Shown: piece after piece, positions 1 through 64,000 of the stretch
How positions within the stretch are numbered: position 1 is the stretch's first letter
Layout of the letters: the number at the start of each line of letters is the position of its first letter
Translations under genes and position numbers: made by a program
Notes under the pieces: model-generated
Databases searched by the model: none
Told to the model about the DNA's origin: nothing
What the model saw: the letters and a program-made list of their open reading frames with translations, nothing else
Assembly (NCBI GenBank): GCA_965240465.1
Contig: OZ251219.1
Location: 608,001-672,000 of the forward strand
Reading direction: 5' to 3'
Length of the DNA: 64,000 nt
DNA from: a bacterium
GTDB taxonomy: Bacteria; SAR324; JACQKK01

Positions 1-358
1 CGGTTTTTTTACCTACTCCGGGAGTGCGTGCTAAGAGGGAGATATCGTTGTGATGGACTGCGGTTCGGATTCCTGAGGCTCCGAGGACGGAGAGTAATTG
101 CAATCCTAATTTGGGGCCTACGCCCCTAACCTTGAGGAGACACTCAAAGAGTAATTTATCTTCCAAAGAAACAAAGCCCACTAAGGAGAGTTGTTCTTCA
201 CGCACAATGGTGGTGATAAATAAGACGATTTCTTTACCTGTGAGAGCCCTTTCCCAGACATCGGGAGGGGTTAGGACCTGATAACCGATTCCATTTGATT
301 CCACGATCATCATTTCAGACCATTGTTTTACTACTTGACCTTTTAGATATCCGATCAT
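1..358 (-). CDS. ruvA: Holliday junction DNA-binding protein RuvA (5' part; runs off window start)
   Basis: Hand translation from ATG at 358: MIGYLKGQVVKQ...ESNGIGYQV...VREEQLSLVGF...LLKVRGVGPKLGL...TPGVGKKT; lies directly after ruvC. Confidence 0.95.
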   Translation of the reverse strand, partial: MIGYLKGQVVKQWSEMMIVESNGIGYQVLTPPDVWERALTGKEIVLFITTIVREEQLSLVGFVSLEDKLLFECLLKVRGVGPKLGLQLLSVLGASGIRTAVHHNDISLLARTPGVGKKT

Positions 359-404
359 GGTGGTTTGTGGGGTTATGATTTGGGGTCTGAGATATGGGGA
401 AAGT

Positions 405-947
405 TTATTTAGTGAGGATTTGTTGAGTTTTCTGGTTAAGAAAGGTGTTGGTGAACATGGTTGCATGGGTGATAGCGATAGCTAAGGCGTCGGCGGCGTC
501 GGTGGGAGGCAATTCGGGGAGGTTCAAGAGGAGTTGTACTAGTCGTTGTATTTGTTGTTTATCGGCTCGTCCACTGCCACCGGTGCATTGTTTAATTTGT
601 GAGGGGGCGTATTCGCTGACGGGTAGTCCATATTTCATCAGGGTGTAGAGGGCGACTCCGCGTGCTTGTCCTAGTATTAGGGCGGCTTGGGGGTAGCGAG
701 CGGCGAAGATATTTTCTATGGCTCCTTGTAGGGGTTGGTATTGTGTTAGGAGGTTTTCTAGTTTTTCTACCAGGAATACTAGTTTTAGTCCGAGGAATTT
801 TTCGCGTGGTAGTTTGAGTACTCCGCTGGCTACGTGAACAAGGTTTCCATTAGTTTGGGAATCTAGGATTCCCCAGCCTGTGAATTGACTACCGGGGTCA
901 ATGCCAATGATTCTGGTTTGAAGGTTTGTATTAGTTTCACTGGGCAT
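405..947 (-). CDS. ruvC: Crossover junction endodeoxyribonuclease RuvC
   Basis: IIGIDPG, AIENIF, LGQARG, GRADKQQI, DAADALAIAITH motifs; start at ATG 947 assumed (ORF extends to 965). Confidence 0.95.
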   Translation of the reverse strand: MPSETNTNLQTRIIGIDPGSQFTGWGILDSQTNGNLVHVASGVLKLPREKFLGLKLVFLVEKLENLLTQYQPLQGAIENIFAARYPQAALILGQARGVALYTLMKYGLPVSEYAPSQIKQCTGGSGRADKQQIQRLVQLLLNLPELPPTDAADALAIAITHATMFTNTFLNQKTQQILTK

Positions 948-1683
948 ATTTTTCGCAGTCTTCATCGGAGAGTTCCAGACTGGAGAAGACCTGTTGTACG
1001 TCTTCGTGTTCTTCCAAAGAATCCAGCAGTTTTAGGATTTGTTTAATGCTATTTTCTTGTTTCACTGTTACAGGAGAGATTGGTAGCCATTCTAGGGCTG
1101 GTTCTATAACTTGGAAGCCATTTTTTTCCAAGTGGGAGCGTACTTTTTCCAGGGTATCAACCGCACAGAGTACCTGATATTGCCCTGATTGATCTTCTAG
1201 ATCTTCGGCCCCGGCTTCAATGGCAGTATTGGTGAGGCGTTCTTCGTCGGTGGTTTCCACTTGGAGGGTGCCGCGGCGGACGAATAGATGTCGGACGGAG
1301 TTGGCTCCTCCTAGGTGGCCGCCAAATTTGCCAAATAAGTGGCGAATGGCAGCAGCGGTGCGATTGCGATTATCGGTAAGGGTAGCGACCATAACAGCTA
1401 CTTTTTCAGGGGCATAGCCTTCATAGATGGCTTCTTCATATTCATTGCTGGTGTTGCTACCGAGTCCTTTTTTTATGGCACGTTGGACGGTATCATTGGG
1501 CATGTTATGAGAACGTGCTTGGAGCATAGCCAGTCTCAGGCGGGGATTGGCTTTAACATCTTCACCGCCGGCTCTAACGGCGGTGGTGAGTTCTCGTATC
1601 AGTTTGGTGAAGGTCTTGCCTCGTTTGGCATCTTGAGCTGCCTTACGGTGCTTGATGGTGCTCCATTTACTGTGTCCGGACAA
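937..1683 (-). CDS. yebC: YebC/PmpR family protein
   Basis: MSGHSKWSTIKHRK N-terminus, YEGY, TDNRNRT; usual yebC-ruvC-ruvA order; TTG start. Confidence 0.95.
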   Translation of the reverse strand: MSGHSKWSTIKHRKAAQDAKRGKTFTKLIRELTTAVRAGGEDVKANPRLRLAMLQARSHNMPNDTVQRAIKKGLGSNTSNEYEEAIYEGYAPEKVAVMVATLTDNRNRTAAAIRHLFGKFGGHLGGANSVRHLFVRRGTLQVETTDEERLTNTAIEAGAEDLEDQSGQYQVLCAVDTLEKVRSHLEKNGFQVIEPALEWLPISPVTVKQENSIKQILKLLDSLEEHEDVQQVFSSLELSDEDCEKYAQ

Positions 1684-1722
1684 GGTGTGTGGTTCTCTCT
1701 TATGGTTTGCTCTTATTGAGGA

Positions 1723-61816: not shown

Positions 61817-61897
61817 GTTGTATTTCCATCAGGGTAGTGCGAACAGAGGTAGTGCGGGGTAGTGCGGGGTAAAGTGCGAATTCTCAAAAAGTTAGGC

Positions 61898-63826
61898 TTA
61901 AAAGAGCCACCATCCTTCCACCAAACTGACTAGTACCAGCATTCCCAGTAACATTGCCAAGAGATAGGTTTGTGCTAAGCCAGTTTGGGTTTGTAGTAGT
62001 AGGCTACCTAAGCCTCTTGCTCCTCGTCCGACGGCATTAACTAAGCCATCCACGATTCGTACATCCATGGTTTTCCACAGCAATTGTCTAGAGAACCAAT
62101 TCAGGGGTTTTATAATAAGCACGTCATATATTTCATCAAGGTAGTATTTTTTTTGTAAGGGTAGTGCTAGGGGCTGCATTTTCTTACCCAGTGCCGAAGC
62201 TCCCTTCAGCCAGCGGCTGAACAATAGAAAGCCGAAGATCATGGCTAATAGAGCTGCTCCAGAGGTAATTCCGCTTAGTAGCCATTCCAAGGATGCCTCC
62301 TCAGTTGCGGATCCCACTGAGGGGAAGAAGCCCTCAAAGTAGCCTTCTAGCCAATTAGGAAGATGGAGGGGATGCCCTAAGAAATGGGGTATGCTAATCC
62401 AGCCTCCGCAGATGGATAACAATGCCAGACTCAACAAGGGGATGGTCATACTGGGGTGAGATTCTTTAATCTTGCTGGTAACGGAGAATCGTGGTTTGCC
62501 AAAGAAGGTCATGGCTACCGAGCGAAACATATAGAAAGCGGTCAGCACTGCGGTTAGGGCGGCTACCGCCCACAAGAGATGGCTACCCAAGGGCGAAGTG
62601 TAGGCTAGCCAGAGGATTTCATCTTTGCTGAAAAAGCCTGCAAATAGCAGGGGAAAGCCCGAGATTGCTAAGGCTCCTATCAAGTAGGTAATACCAGTGA
62701 TGGGCATATATCGGAGTAATCCGCCCATTTGTCGCATATCTTGCTGGTGATGCATGCGGTGAATTACTGATCCAGCTGCCAAGAACAACAAAGCTTTGAA
62801 GAAGGCATGGGTAAGCACATGAAAAATACTAGCCGTGAAAGCTCCTACTCCGATGGCTAGGAACATGTATCCCAATTGACTAATGGTGGAATACGCCAGC
62901 ACTTTTTTAATATCGTTTTGTACCAAGGCGATGGTAGCCGCTAATAGAGCAGTAGCTGTTCCCAATATCGCGATCACCCCCATAGCAAAGGGTGCTAGTA
63001 CTAGCAATCCGCTTAAGCGTGCCAGCAGGTAGAGTCCAGCGGTAACCATGGTAGCCGCGTGGATTAGGGCTGAAACAGGAGTGGGACCTTCCATTGCATC
63101 TGGGAGCCACACATAGAGAGGAATTTGAGCACTCTTTCCAGCTGCTGCCAGCAAAAACAGCAGGACTATTGAATTGGCAATCCAGCTATTTTCTTCCAGC
63201 CGCAAGGGAGCTTGTTCTCTCAAGAAATTGAATTCCAAACTACCAAAAATCCAAAACACCAATAGGGTAGCTACCACAAAACCCACATCCCCCACCCGAT
63301 TAAACACAAATGCCTTTTTGGCAGCTTCTGCGGCAGCTTCTCTCTGATGTTCGTATCCGATCAGCAGATAAGAGCATAGTCCGACCCCCTCCCAACCTAC
63401 GAACATCAATAGCAAATTGTTGGATAACACCAGCAATAGCATGAAAAATATAAATAAATTCAAATAGGCAAAAAATCGCTGAGAACCAGCTTCAGCTCCT
63501 ATGTAACCCACCGAATACACATGAATTAAAAAACCCACCCCAGTTATGATCAGCACGTACAAGGCACTTAGCCGATCCATCTCCAACTCTGCCCCTACCC
63601 GAAAACTACCAGCCCTAATCCAAGTGAATAATTCCTGCTGCAATATGCCCCCTTCCTCAGCCGATAACTGTAAAAACGTCAGCACTCCTAACCCAAATGA
63701 TCCCAAAATAACCCCAGGGGAAATCCAAAACACCAACTGCTTGTTTTCAGCCATATTCAGCAAGACACAACCGAAAAAACCCGCCAAAGGTAGTCCTGCT
63801 ATCAGCCATAAATAGGATCCCATCAA
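61898..63826 (-). CDS. nuoL: NADH-quinone oxidoreductase subunit L
   Basis: IHVYS.GY, RFFAYLNLF, GWEGVGLCSYLLIG, GKSAQ.PL.VWLPDAMEGPTPVSALIHAATMV, HAFFKALLFL. Confidence 0.97.
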   Translation of the reverse strand: MMGSYLWLIAGLPLAGFFGCVLLNMAENKQLVFWISPGVILGSFGLGVLTFLQLSAEEGGILQQELFTWIRAGSFRVGAELEMDRLSALYVLIITGVGFLIHVYSVGYIGAEAGSQRFFAYLNLFIFFMLLLVLSNNLLLMFVGWEGVGLCSYLLIGYEHQREAAAEAAKKAFVFNRVGDVGFVVATLLVFWIFGSLEFNFLREQAPLRLEENSWIANSIVLLFLLAAAGKSAQIPLYVWLPDAMEGPTPVSALIHAATMVTAGLYLLARLSGLLVLAPFAMGVIAILGTATALLAATIALVQNDIKKVLAYSTISQLGYMFLAIGVGAFTASIFHVLTHAFFKALLFLAAGSVIHRMHHQQDMRQMGGLLRYMPITGITYLIGALAISGFPLLFAGFFSKDEILWLAYTSPLGSHLLWAVAALTAVLTAFYMFRSVAMTFFGKPRFSVTSKIKESHPSMTIPLLSLALLSICGGWISIPHFLGHPLHLPNWLEGYFEGFFPSVGSATEEASLEWLLSGITSGAALLAMIFGFLLFSRWLKGASALGKKMQPLALPLQKKYYLDEIYDVLIIKPLNWFSRQLLWKTMDVRIVDGLVNAVGRGARGLGSLLLQTQTGLAQTYLLAMLLGMLVLVSLVEGWWLF

Positions 63827-63830
63827 TTAC

Positions 63831-64000
63831 CTAACCTTTTAATAAATTGATGTGCTCAATTTCTAGTTTTCCGCTATTCCGAAAAATAGACAAGATAATG
63901 GATAATCCTATCACCGCCTCTGCAGCCGCAATCGCTAGCACAAAAAACACCACCAAAACTCCCGTTAGTGAATCCAAGAAAGTACTAAAAGCCACCAAGG
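63831..64000 (-). CDS. nuoK: NADH-quinone oxidoreductase subunit K (3' part)
   Basis: Hand translation ...LVAFSTFLDSLTGVLVVFFVLAIAAAEAVIGLSIILSIFRNSGKLEIEHINLLKG*. Confidence 0.95.
   Translation of the reverse strand, partial: LVAFSTFLDSLTGVLVVFFVLAIAAAEAVIGLSIILSIFRNSGKLEIEHINLLKG

Follow-up and report, generated by a model that had tools for sequence, protein, structure and literature searches.

In this small bacterial genome and in its sister species, almost every gene is G-rich at its start and C-rich at its end on the coding strand, and the resulting saw-tooth of GC skew is a property of genes and not of origin-like sites. Strand skew in bacteria is usually attributed to replication, with a minor constant contribution from transcription; here the component anchored at genes equals the replication component in size, and the gradient alters which amino acids occupy the N- and C-termini of proteins. 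Full-text literature searches found no description of such a gradient in bacteria, as the preliminary description of this DNA had surmised. In genomes of this kind, skew-based origin finding and the statistics of codon usage and gene transfer are distorted and, given that the skew statistic is simple, other lineages can be screened for the trait.

Materials and methods

The genome, of 1.6 Mb, is small and reduced, and 1199 genes entered the genome-wide counts as simple longest-ORF calls made with no gene finder; strand miscalls cannot produce the saw-tooth, because the pattern is reverse-complement symmetric. The main measure was coding-strand GC skew at four-fold sites by gene deciles, with 200 shuffles, each confined to one codon family of one gene, as the control. 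The comparison set consisted of the sole other genome of the genus, 11 other genomes of the family, 3 genomes of the sister family and 80 control loci. Jump sites were assessed with 400-nt flanks and ranked against 3000 random sites. The window is the whole 64,000-nt stretch analysed, and the product of its nuoL-like gene was the query protein.

Coding-strand polarity of genes

Genome-wide, the four-fold-site skew of the coding strand falls along the gene deciles from -0.046 to -0.332. The first half is G-richer than the second in 690 of 1025 genes (p=6e-29), and the pooled difference between halves is 0.162 against 0.020 +/- 0.005 in the shuffles (z=27), which bears out the shift at synonymous sites proposed in the preliminary description. 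All three codon positions are affected, positions 1 and 2 more weakly than four-fold sites, an ordering that is expected from a nucleotide-level pressure filtered by protein constraint; from 5' to 3' along the gene D, C, V, G and M drop and Q, Y, N, K, P and T increase. The shift is almost purely between G and C, with A and T flat at four-fold sites. A parallel saw-tooth of T/A skew had been proposed, but this component is weak: across windows, third-position GC skew does not correlate with third-position TA skew (r=0.07), and a mild AT-skew gradient is present in the relatives too. Third-position skews reach +1.0 and -0.9, and their SD of 0.38, versus 0.17-0.19 in relatives, corresponds to an approximately fourfold higher local variance.

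Both ends of the gene contribute, the skew changing by -0.49 per 1000 codons with distance from the start (CI -0.61 to -0.36) and by +0.36 per 1000 codons with distance to the stop (CI 0.22 to 0.53). The gradient is approximately linear in codon number, with a constant slope and a period of one gene, and in genes of at least 700 aa the change is concentrated near the ends. The change in skew begins already in the spacers. C-richness is maximal over the final 50-250 nt of the reading frame and disappears within 50-100 nt past the stop; it is greater at the ends of units than at tight junctions inside them. The reset also occurs in genes that lie within tight runs (0.272 to -0.073). The gradient persists after repeat masking (-0.062 to -0.304 masked, -0.064 to -0.314 unmasked, with 95% of sites kept), so that skewed tandem repeats near the ends of genes were rejected as its source.

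Within the window (Table 1) the 600-nt skew profile lies between +0.44 and -0.32, and the ORFs are unbroken and correspond to known families (NCBIfam). The six 60-nt counts made by hand in the preliminary description were exact on recount (5041-5100, G28/C4; 10741-10800, G9/C24; 31021-31080, G26/C4; 36541-36600, G9/C21; 59161-59220, G25/C9; 63481-63540, G7/C20). The gene-wise reset that it had reported holds for most genes and fails for glmS, purH, tuf and fusA, which are flat, and within the five-gene block that includes glmS the resets between genes are weak. The 477-aa nuo subunit gene has the same skew shape in the same-genus genome and is flat in the family relative G009. The 578-aa nuo subunit gene, here called nuoM by its position, overlaps the upstream gene by 4 nt and a full jump occurs there nonetheless; its 3' end contains a 30-nt x 4.7 tandem repeat (60087-60226).

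Table 1. Features of the window and their GC skew.
Feature	Position	Strand	Skew and remarks
Whole window	1..64000		Saw-tooth GC skew on top of a positive (leading-strand) mean
Five co-directional genes including glmS and a glmU-like gene	4937..10956	-	+ strand skew +0.49 to -0.39 over the entire block
Spacer upstream of murD	30880..30980		C-to-G jump of 0.54 at 30925
murD	30979..32433	+	TIGR01087, 269 bits; coding skew in ~300-nt bins +0.56, +0.50, +0.32, -0.03, -0.10
Convergent junction	32434..32512		C-to-G jump of 0.61 at 32487
423-aa gene, no NCBIfam family	32513..33784	-	+ strand skew +0.49 to -0.10; coding strand 5' G-rich, 3' C-rich
MltD-like transglycosylase gene	34574..36694	+	Skew +0.28 to -0.34
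Convergent junction	36695..36841		C-to-G jump of 0.55 at 36734
purH-like gene	37587..38867	-	No gradient: -0.03, -0.05, +0.06, -0.03
Convergent junction	50629..50836		C-to-G jump of 0.84 at 50801, strongest in the window
477-aa antiporter-like nuo subunit gene (nuoN in the preliminary description)	58656..60086	-	Coding skew +0.17 to -0.45
578-aa antiporter-like nuo subunit gene	60083..61816	-	Coding skew 0.00 to -0.54
nuoL-like gene	61898..63826	-	Coding skew +0.43 to +0.08

Abrupt resets at gene boundaries

Genome-wide, the C-to-G jumps are abrupt and lie at gene boundaries, whereas the G-to-C changes are gradual. Jumps of at least 0.5 number 150 upward versus 77 downward, and those of at least 0.7 number 26 versus 6; the upward jumps lie a median of 52 nt from a gene boundary, compared with 273 nt for random sites, and the placement of downward jumps resembles that of random sites. 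The size of the jump tracks the structure of the transcription units, being +0.36 to +0.41 at convergent junctions, +0.26 to +0.28 at divergent junctions and, between co-directional genes, +0.23 with a gap of 61-150 nt and +0.09 with a gap of 15 nt or less. Each of the ten jump sites listed in the preliminary description has a local C-to-G jump of 0.35-0.84 within 72 nt, and 6 of the 10 rank at or above the 95th percentile of random sites, 8 at or above the 88th. That the jumps occur regardless of gene orientation was likewise observed, but no origin-like sites are called for, given that a gradient from 5' G to 3' C on the coding strand automatically gives the + strand the same look in either direction.

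A search for motifs in the spacers that carry jumps yielded none in common, and the suggested enrichment of tandem repeats there is absent (24 of 87 spacers versus 184 of 795). Tandem repeats are unusually abundant in the genome, with 380 arrays per Mb versus 65 in controls, and 229 of 608 arrays fall in the intergenic 9% of the genome; a 10-nt tandem repeat (50704-50781) lies within the junction with the strongest jump of the window. One independent contig from a second assembler bridges, with no difference, each of the jumps at 30925, 32487 and 34354; these are therefore not assembly joins. Among contigs there is a 7-nt length variant at 36766, in the junction 36695..36841, and Logan contigs end in several spacers.

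Relation to replication

The chromosome-wide cumulative G-C minimum is at genome position 607,845, which is 156 nt left of the window, and dnaA lies at 605,074-606,393, just outside it; the true origin is thus a single site adjoining dnaA. The kb-scale jumps were rejected as flips of the oriC type, given that such a flip occurs once per chromosome and that jumps of at least 0.5 number 150. The gradient does not differ among the four strand-by-replichore classes. The recurrent strand-asymmetric process that had been put forward is supported, and it is anchored at gene boundaries and independent of gene orientation and replichore. Exposure of the lagging strand in phase with Okazaki fragments predicts a dependence on one gene end, the priming side, which would switch between leading and lagging genes, and was rejected, as both ends matter in leading genes (b1 -0.58, b2 +0.37) and in lagging genes (b1 -0.41, b2 +0.34), with all four CIs excluding 0.

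At four-fold sites, 5' ends differ from 3' ends (A -0.007, C -0.061, G +0.053, T +0.015) almost exactly as leading differs from lagging (A 0.000, C -0.063, G +0.050, T +0.013); spectrum and size both match, with a Pearson r of 0.90 over 32 codons. Because the four-fold spectrum equals that of the replication asymmetry, a DNA-level mutational cause is favoured. The recurrent mutational process at intergenic sites envisaged in the preliminary description is partly supported: the anchoring at boundaries holds and a mutational cause is favoured, while local synthesis of the lagging strand fails.

Distribution among genomes and genes

The gradient is present in this genome (G000; 618 of 850 genes) and in the same-genus genome (G001; 174 of 238), and was found in none of the 11 other family genomes, the 3 sister-family genomes and the 80 control loci; the trait is derived and lineage-specific. 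Its strength is specific to the gene and is preserved from one species to the other (four-fold sites only, r=0.47, n=151), although the two share a median protein identity of 62%. It is absent from 29 low-GC, probably recently acquired genes (12/29). Of 8 translation genes inspected, the 2 long ones, tuf and fusA, in which the strongest codon selection is expected, have no falling gradient, though this result is anecdotal; like the ribosomal-protein genes, they rely on T-ending codons and have no gradient. Protein conservation, which serves as a crude indicator of expression, shows no correlation with gradient strength (rho 0.01 and -0.05), and the 23S rRNA gene, which is transcribed, untranslated and highly constrained, has no genus-specific gradient. 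Genus-specific loss was found for none of rho, rnhA, mfd, UDG, mutS and nusG, all present in 5 of 5 genomes tested; recG is absent from 5 of 5, and mutY is missing in G000 only. Hairpin-plus-T terminators were detected at 18 of 192 unit ends in G000, versus 3 of 192 mid-gene controls, with no excess of canonical terminators within the window; intrinsic terminators are equally few in the relatives, yet these have no gradient.

Discussion

In bacterial chromosomes generally, G exceeds C on the leading strand and the sign flips at oriC and at the terminus. The pattern described here shares with this replication skew its four-fold base spectrum, its magnitude and a C-to-G flip at each anchor, but differs in that one flip per chromosome is the norm, whereas 150 strong ones occur here in 1.6 Mb, tied to gene ends and independent of fork direction. 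Transcription-associated asymmetry in bacteria reportedly (Francino and Ochman) consists of an excess of C->T on the non-transcribed strand. It is alike in being tied to transcription units and in the enrichment of G on the non-template strand near the start; as an explanation it was rejected in its classical form, which needs one sign and an enrichment of T, given that here the sign reverses within the gene and A/T is static. Vertebrate mitochondrial DNA and linear protein-primed genomes have linear skew gradients that arise from single-stranded time and bear C->T and A->G signatures. These are likewise linear with distance and reach very high third-position skews, but they span whole replicons, whereas the present gradients are gene-sized and exchange G and C. 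The human N-domains are a saw-tooth skew over hundreds of kb to Mb, attributed to replication origins, whose amplitude is no larger in longer domains; the present saw-tooth repeats with every gene and keeps a constant slope. Bidirectional asymmetries are also described around human CpG islands (Polak & Arndt 2009, PMC2817419). N-domains and CpG islands share with the present pattern a skew that rises abruptly at fixed sites and declines gradually from one to the next, and an asymmetry that spreads from an anchor in both directions.

The closest analogue is the gradient of yeasts, in mirror image. In unicellular fungi an intragenic GC-skew gradient runs from a C-biased 5' end to a G-biased 3' end (McLean & Tirosh 2011, BMC Genomics 12:638, PMC3315797). 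As set out in passages of that paper, the two cases are alike in the change of sign along the ORF, the involvement of four-fold sites and of amino-acid usage at both ends, a slight extension past the ORF and a flat AT skew, and opposite in polarity, the 5' end being G-biased and the 3' end C-biased here; these passages mention bacteria as background only. Fungi also differ as eukaryotes with Pol II, no operons and no coupled translation.

It is suggested, tentatively and with a probability of roughly 0.45, that the saw-tooth results from a gene-anchored, transcription-linked, strand-asymmetric mutation bias, where we infer both the mutational nature and transcription or R-loops as the source. 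A strand-asymmetric substitution bias would be attached to each gene or transcription unit in this genus: near the 5' end the coding (non-template) strand would gain G and lose C, near the 3' end the template strand would do so and leave the coding strand C-rich, and each end effect would decay over ~0.7-1.5 kb, so that short genes look linear and long genes plateau mid-gene. The cause would be that the non-template strand is single-stranded during transcription not covered by ribosomes, which may include the first part of reading frames, antisense transcripts and read-through entering from 3' ends. Such transcription would be prone to R-loops and self-reinforcing, G-rich RNA forming more stable hybrids, and the damage spectrum would be the same one that writes the leading/lagging asymmetry of the genome. 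In favour of a mutation bias are the shifts in codon positions and amino acids, the match of spectrum, the dependence on two ends, the jump sizes by unit structure, the restriction to the genus, the flatness of low-GC genes and (anecdotally) of tuf and fusA, and the strength conserved between species. Against it, exchange is purely between G and C, whereas cytosine deamination in exposed DNA should raise T and an unusual lesion or bypass spectrum must be assumed; the reset at tight, even overlapping, operon junctions is hard to obtain from transcription alone and requires a putative link to translation. Gradient strength also shows no relation to protein conservation, the 23S rRNA gene is without it, and none of the repair and termination genes inspected was lost specifically in the genus.

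It is possible, though doubtful, that ribosome-free transcription leaves persistent RNA-DNA hybrids whose displaced strand undergoes a self-reinforcing change of C-to-G type, giving genes a G-rich head and a C-rich tail and reshaping their proteins; in a bolder variant such hybrids may prime local DNA synthesis at gene boundaries. If mutational, the gradient offers a natural system in which to measure how transcription, translation coupling and R-loops affect mutation along a gene, and if the hybrid reading is true it represents a new kind of bacterial mutational landscape, readable straight from sequence.

The chief alternative, though an unlikely one, is that selection acts on the transcript or on transcription itself. 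Rho loads on C-rich, G-poor naked RNA; a G-rich, C-poor 5' end would keep Rho off uncovered RNA, and a C-rich 3' end would stop transcription after the unit or upon failed translation, or alternatively G/C polarity would tune pausing or the stability of the RNA-DNA hybrid along the gene. The axis, purely G versus C with A/T neutral, is the composition that Rho reads, canonical terminators are rare, rho and nusG are present, unit ends are C-richer than tight internal junctions, strength is conserved per gene, and the reset occurs per reading frame inside operons. However, the relatives are equally terminator-poor and have no gradient, and C-richness is highest within the terminal part of the ORF and vanishes within 50-100 nt after the stop, where Rho loading would be expected; a Rho-utilisation (rut) region would be a C-rich, G-poor stretch of ribosome-free RNA at or past the stop codon, upstream of the release point. 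Furthermore, selection on RNA does not predict a spectrum and size equal to those of the replication asymmetry, protein composition is reshaped genome-wide in a reduced genome, tuf and fusA lack the gradient, and Rho-resistant antisense RNA would arise over the 3' parts, which would seem harmful. If selected, the gradient would amount to a genome-wide code controlling Rho or polymerase flow.

The idea of the preliminary description, that boundaries are recurrent sites of start or restart of DNA synthesis, or miniature origins, through re-priming of Okazaki fragments or the leading strand, R-loop-primed synthesis or repair synthesis, is improbable. Bacterial Okazaki fragments are on the scale of 1 kb, which the decay length of ~1 kb resembles; each boundary has the C-to-G flip typical of an origin, the spectrum is that of replication, and the richness in tandem repeats, many of them intergenic, suggests frequent slippage near gene ends. 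Yet a model confined to the lagging strand predicts one gene end per replichore, tight junctions with no spacer can jump, the largest jumps fall at convergent junctions, where promoters are lacking, jump spacers have neither motif nor repeat excess, and 5'-resection from breaks would probably yield the opposite polarity.

Translational codon selection varying along the message, as a ramp or through a cost of nonsense errors growing 3'-ward, would account for the reset per reading frame and the approximate linearity in codon number, but is very improbable and largely refuted: the gradient is not confined to synonymous choice, codon positions 1 and 2 and amino-acid usage shifting too and in this genus only, the change starts in spacers, and it is not strongest in highly expressed genes, as tuf, fusA and the ribosomal-protein genes illustrate. 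An artefact of assembly, sequencing or ORF calling found no support and has next to no probability, for although genes were called crudely and several spacers contain breaks between Logan contigs, the pattern occurs in two independent closed genomes, the second-assembler contigs bridge three jumps with 0 differences, and intact reading frames match known families.

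Skew gradient along genes

Genes were called crudely, as the longest non-overlapping ORFs of at least 100 aa, giving 1199 genes over 88% of the genome, all oriented 5'-to-3'. Across these calls the GC skew of the coding strand drops monotonically over gene deciles. At four-fold degenerate sites the skew falls from -0.046 in the first decile to -0.332 in the last, with C rising from 0.23 to 0.30, G falling from 0.21 to 0.15 and both A and T flat; at third codon positions it runs from +0.104 to -0.152, and positions 1 and 2 show a smaller drop. Of 1025 testable genes, 690 have a first half richer in G than the second (p=6e-29), and the pooled half-to-half difference is 0.162, compared with 0.020 +/- 0.005 in 200 shuffles within gene and codon family (z=27). 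Given that the gradient exceeds the shuffles, the four-fold skew is neither uniform nor shuffle-like, and the saw-tooth of the preliminary description, whose six 60-nt hand counts were all exact on recount, is confirmed far beyond chance.

In genes of 100-700 aa the skew declines by about 0.0007 units per codon. Site skew tracks two distances, each significantly: that from the start (slope -0.49 per 1000 codons) and that to the stop (+0.36). Since both gene ends count, the gradient is centred on the gene, and longer genes show a larger amplitude. In genes of at least 700 aa the change lies close to both ends with a plateau in the middle, a profile that fits two effects, each decaying over ~0.7-1.5 kb from its end. 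Neither the strand nor the replichore of a gene alters the size of the gradient, which is equal across the four classes. At the extremes, some units span +1.0 to -0.9 in third-position skew, and one 324-codon gene has 9 C at third positions.

The most extreme polarity seen is that of a gene pair outside the window (see table), in which the first gene encodes a protein with an RR-type signal-like N-terminus and a great abundance of G, W and L, and the end of the second is rich in H, P, T and N; the pair shows the extent to which nucleotide bias remodels protein. In one nuo gene, an internal tandem repeat encodes a repetitive C-terminal tail and explains much of the extreme terminal skew.

Jumps at gene boundaries

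On the + strand, upward (C-to-G) jumps outnumber downward ones genome-wide by 150 to 77 at a size of at least 0.5 and by 26 to 6 at 0.7 or more. The upward jumps lie at gene boundaries, at a median of 52 nt as against 273 nt for random sites, whereas downward changes are positioned as random sites are; abrupt rises at boundaries together with unanchored falls produce the saw-tooth. At each of the ten sites listed in the preliminary description a local jump, 0.35-0.84 in size, is found no more than 72 nt away; six reach or pass the 95th percentile of random sites. Jump size is +0.36 to +0.41 at convergent and +0.26 to +0.28 at divergent junctions; at co-directional junctions it is +0.23 for gaps of 61-150 nt and +0.09 for gaps of 15 nt or less. 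Skew still drops from +0.27 to -0.07 along genes within tight runs, and among the nuo genes it resets even at a 4-nt overlap; elsewhere, a single tooth covers two or three genes.

The pattern had been said to hold regardless of gene orientation, which is indeed seen but calls for no special cause, as reverse complementation leaves the pattern unchanged: a coding strand passing from G-rich to C-rich reads G on the left and C on the right of the + strand in either direction, so that origin-like sites are unnecessary. Of the strand-asymmetric process then proposed, what stands is that it is real, boundary-anchored and probably mutational; it is, however, gene-intrinsic rather than origin-like. 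Assembly joins are excluded as a cause, given that contigs which another assembler made from the likely source sample cross three of the jumps without a difference. Elsewhere these contigs carry two length variants, in spacers that also contain tandem repeats, and their variants are too few for polarising substitutions.

Features referred to in the text (w, window coordinates; g, genome coordinates)
Feature	Position	Remark
Three of the jumps	w 30925, 32487, 34354	crossed by independent contigs
Single teeth over two or three genes	w 4937-10956; g 499.8-502.7 kb	
Most polar gene pair	g 499,782-502,224	outside window
Repeat in nuo subunit gene	w 60087-60226	30-nt unit x 4.7, in 3' end of 578-aa gene
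Length variants in contigs	w 36766; 39171-39263	7-nt deletion; 91-nt skip
Nth-like gene	w 18580-19029	best match in mutY search
DnaA-family gene	g 605,074-606,393	206.8 bits, under model's cut-off
Cumulative G-C minimum, maximum	g 607,845; 1,562,156	whole genome
Probable replication origin	g 605,074-607,845	just left of window
Low-G+C gene pairs	g 479-481, 503-506, 517-519 kb	29-36% G+C; outside window
Asp-rich repeat gene clusters	g 300-400, 700-900, 1300-1400 kb	outside window
Region of single 23S gene	g 1,075,001-1,085,500	includes 5.3 kb upstream of 23S
Intact rnhA	g 255,696-256,100	
RNase H fragments	g 261,288; 264,802; 267,855; 271,375	outside window; each with a stop

Genomic setting and taxonomic distribution

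The genome is closed, with 1,599,138 bp and a G+C content of 45%. Given that the minimum of the cumulative G-C curve and the DnaA-family gene adjoining it lie just to its left, the window starts where replication probably begins; its mean skew is positive because the + strand here is the leading one. The replichores, taken from skew minimum and maximum, are unequal (~954 and 645 kb), and gene-strand bias is absent (605 leading and 594 lagging genes).

The gradient is also present in the only other genome of the genus, a sister species of 1.72 Mb and 50% G+C with a 74% identical NuoL, where four-fold skew starts at +0.02 and ends at -0.263 and the effect is positive in 19 of 20 loci and 174 of 238 genes. 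It is absent from samples, some of just 8-13 genes, of 11 other family genomes (2.3-5.2 Mb, G+C 52-70%) and 3 sister-family genomes, and from 80 loci of many phyla (1.36 Mb); a locus scan based on NuoL gave matches from many phyla, all at 51% identity or less. Third-position skew, taken in 120-codon windows, has a standard deviation of 0.38 and 0.36 in the two genomes of the genus, as against 0.17-0.19 outside it, and the shift at codon positions 1 and 2 is confined to the genus. Between the two species (protein identity 62%) per-gene gradient strength is kept, with r=0.47 from four-fold sites only (n=151), which is near the ceiling that sampling noise in the per-gene values sets, by a hand estimate. 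The gradient is lacking in 29 genes below 38% G+C, which are probably recent arrivals. Three sets of low-G+C gene pairs outside the window, likewise without a skew gradient, are probably recent acquisitions.

Mutation or selection

The strongest clue on mutation versus selection is the near-equality of two spectra. At four-fold sites, heads minus tails gives A -0.007, C -0.061, G +0.053 and T +0.015, and leading minus lagging genes (middle thirds) gives A 0.000, C -0.063, G +0.050 and T +0.013; over 32 codons the two contrasts correlate with Pearson r 0.90. Given this match and the reduced genome, together with the altered protein composition and the lack of a gradient both in the two long translation genes looked at (tuf and fusA) and in the probable recent arrivals, a strand-asymmetric mutation bias is favoured, with a probability of roughly 0.6 for all its forms together. 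That the bias comes specifically from transcription-linked exposure of the non-template strand, its most natural source, is a tentative proposal, to which we give a little less than even odds: near the 5' end of each reading frame sense transcription would expose that strand, and near the 3' end the exposure would come from antisense transcription or read-through. Several points weigh against a mutation bias: the change is purely between G and C, the gradient resets within operons, its strength is uncorrelated with protein conservation, the 23S rRNA gene is flat, with no genus-specific skew trend (16S lies outside the stretch compared), and none of about ten repair and transcription gene families checked shows a genus-specific loss. 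Among the five genomes compared for these families, mutY is missing from that of the window alone, where the best match is an Nth-like gene, and the sole match to recG is the Mfd gene in all five.

The main rival, selection on RNA for avoidance of Rho at heads and access for Rho at tails, would suit an axis confined to G and C as well as the rarity of intrinsic terminators, yet the relatives are equally terminator-poor without having the gradient, and C-richness fades exactly at the expected Rho loading site; we consider this explanation unlikely. The same poverty in relatives excludes terminator loss as a trigger. In window 28-48 kb, searches gave 25 intrinsic terminators where 22 were expected, and 29 sigma-70-type promoters where 27 were expected.

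DNA synthesis initiated at gene boundaries, as first suggested, is highly doubtful. Neither of the anchors sought at the jumps was borne out: 87 jump spacers compared with 795 others yielded no boundary motif beyond weak enrichment of G-runs (9/87 against 14/795) and TTGACA (23/87 against 101/795), and had no excess of tandem repeats (p=0.35). Repeats are also rejected as a cause, the gradient being unchanged after masking. Lagging-strand exposure phased by Okazaki fragments predicts an effect of one gene end that switches between leading and lagging genes, but both ends count in both classes. Translational codon choice is excluded, given that codon positions 1 and 2 shift too and that tuf, fusA and ribosomal-protein genes are flat; G-quadruplex motifs are too rare (16 on coding and 38 on template strands of genes of 200-800 aa); and differences in oligomers between heads and tails trace to a few gene clusters for Asp-rich repeat proteins, with no dispersed signal.

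Relation to known asymmetries

The saw-tooth skew of human N-domains and the bidirectional asymmetries at human CpG islands (PMC2817419) are similar in shape, about a thousand times larger and attributed to replication. The closest parallel on record is the GC-skew gradient within genes of unicellular fungi, which is likewise present at four-fold sites, affects amino acids and leaves AT skew flat but has the opposite polarity (PMC3315797). A full-text literature search that covered few subscription journals turned up no bacterium described as having such a saw-tooth from gene to gene; we rate the pattern as a new form of an already known kind of strand compositional asymmetry.

Repeats, rRNA genes and RNase H fragments

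Short tandem arrays, with periods mostly of 9-30 nt, are very dense: they number 380 per Mb and occupy 4.4% of bases genome-wide, compared with 226 per Mb in the sister species, ~145 in the family and 65 in the control loci; 229 of 608 fall within the intergenic 9% of the genome, and in the window TRF returns 64 rows. The Asp-rich clusters consist of large genes with repeats of the D-T-D-D-D-N-D type, one gene having up to 31 copies of one 7-mer. Around the single 23S gene, matches to the sister species or to comparison genome G008 are limited to the 23S itself and two pieces of 74 and 85 nt; a 16S gene is not evident there, and the rRNA genes may be unlinked. Downstream of an intact rnhA, beside large paralogous genes, four fragments matching just the last 40 residues of RNase H recur at a spacing of ~3.5 kb, which looks like serial tandem duplication that would have taken the gene end along.
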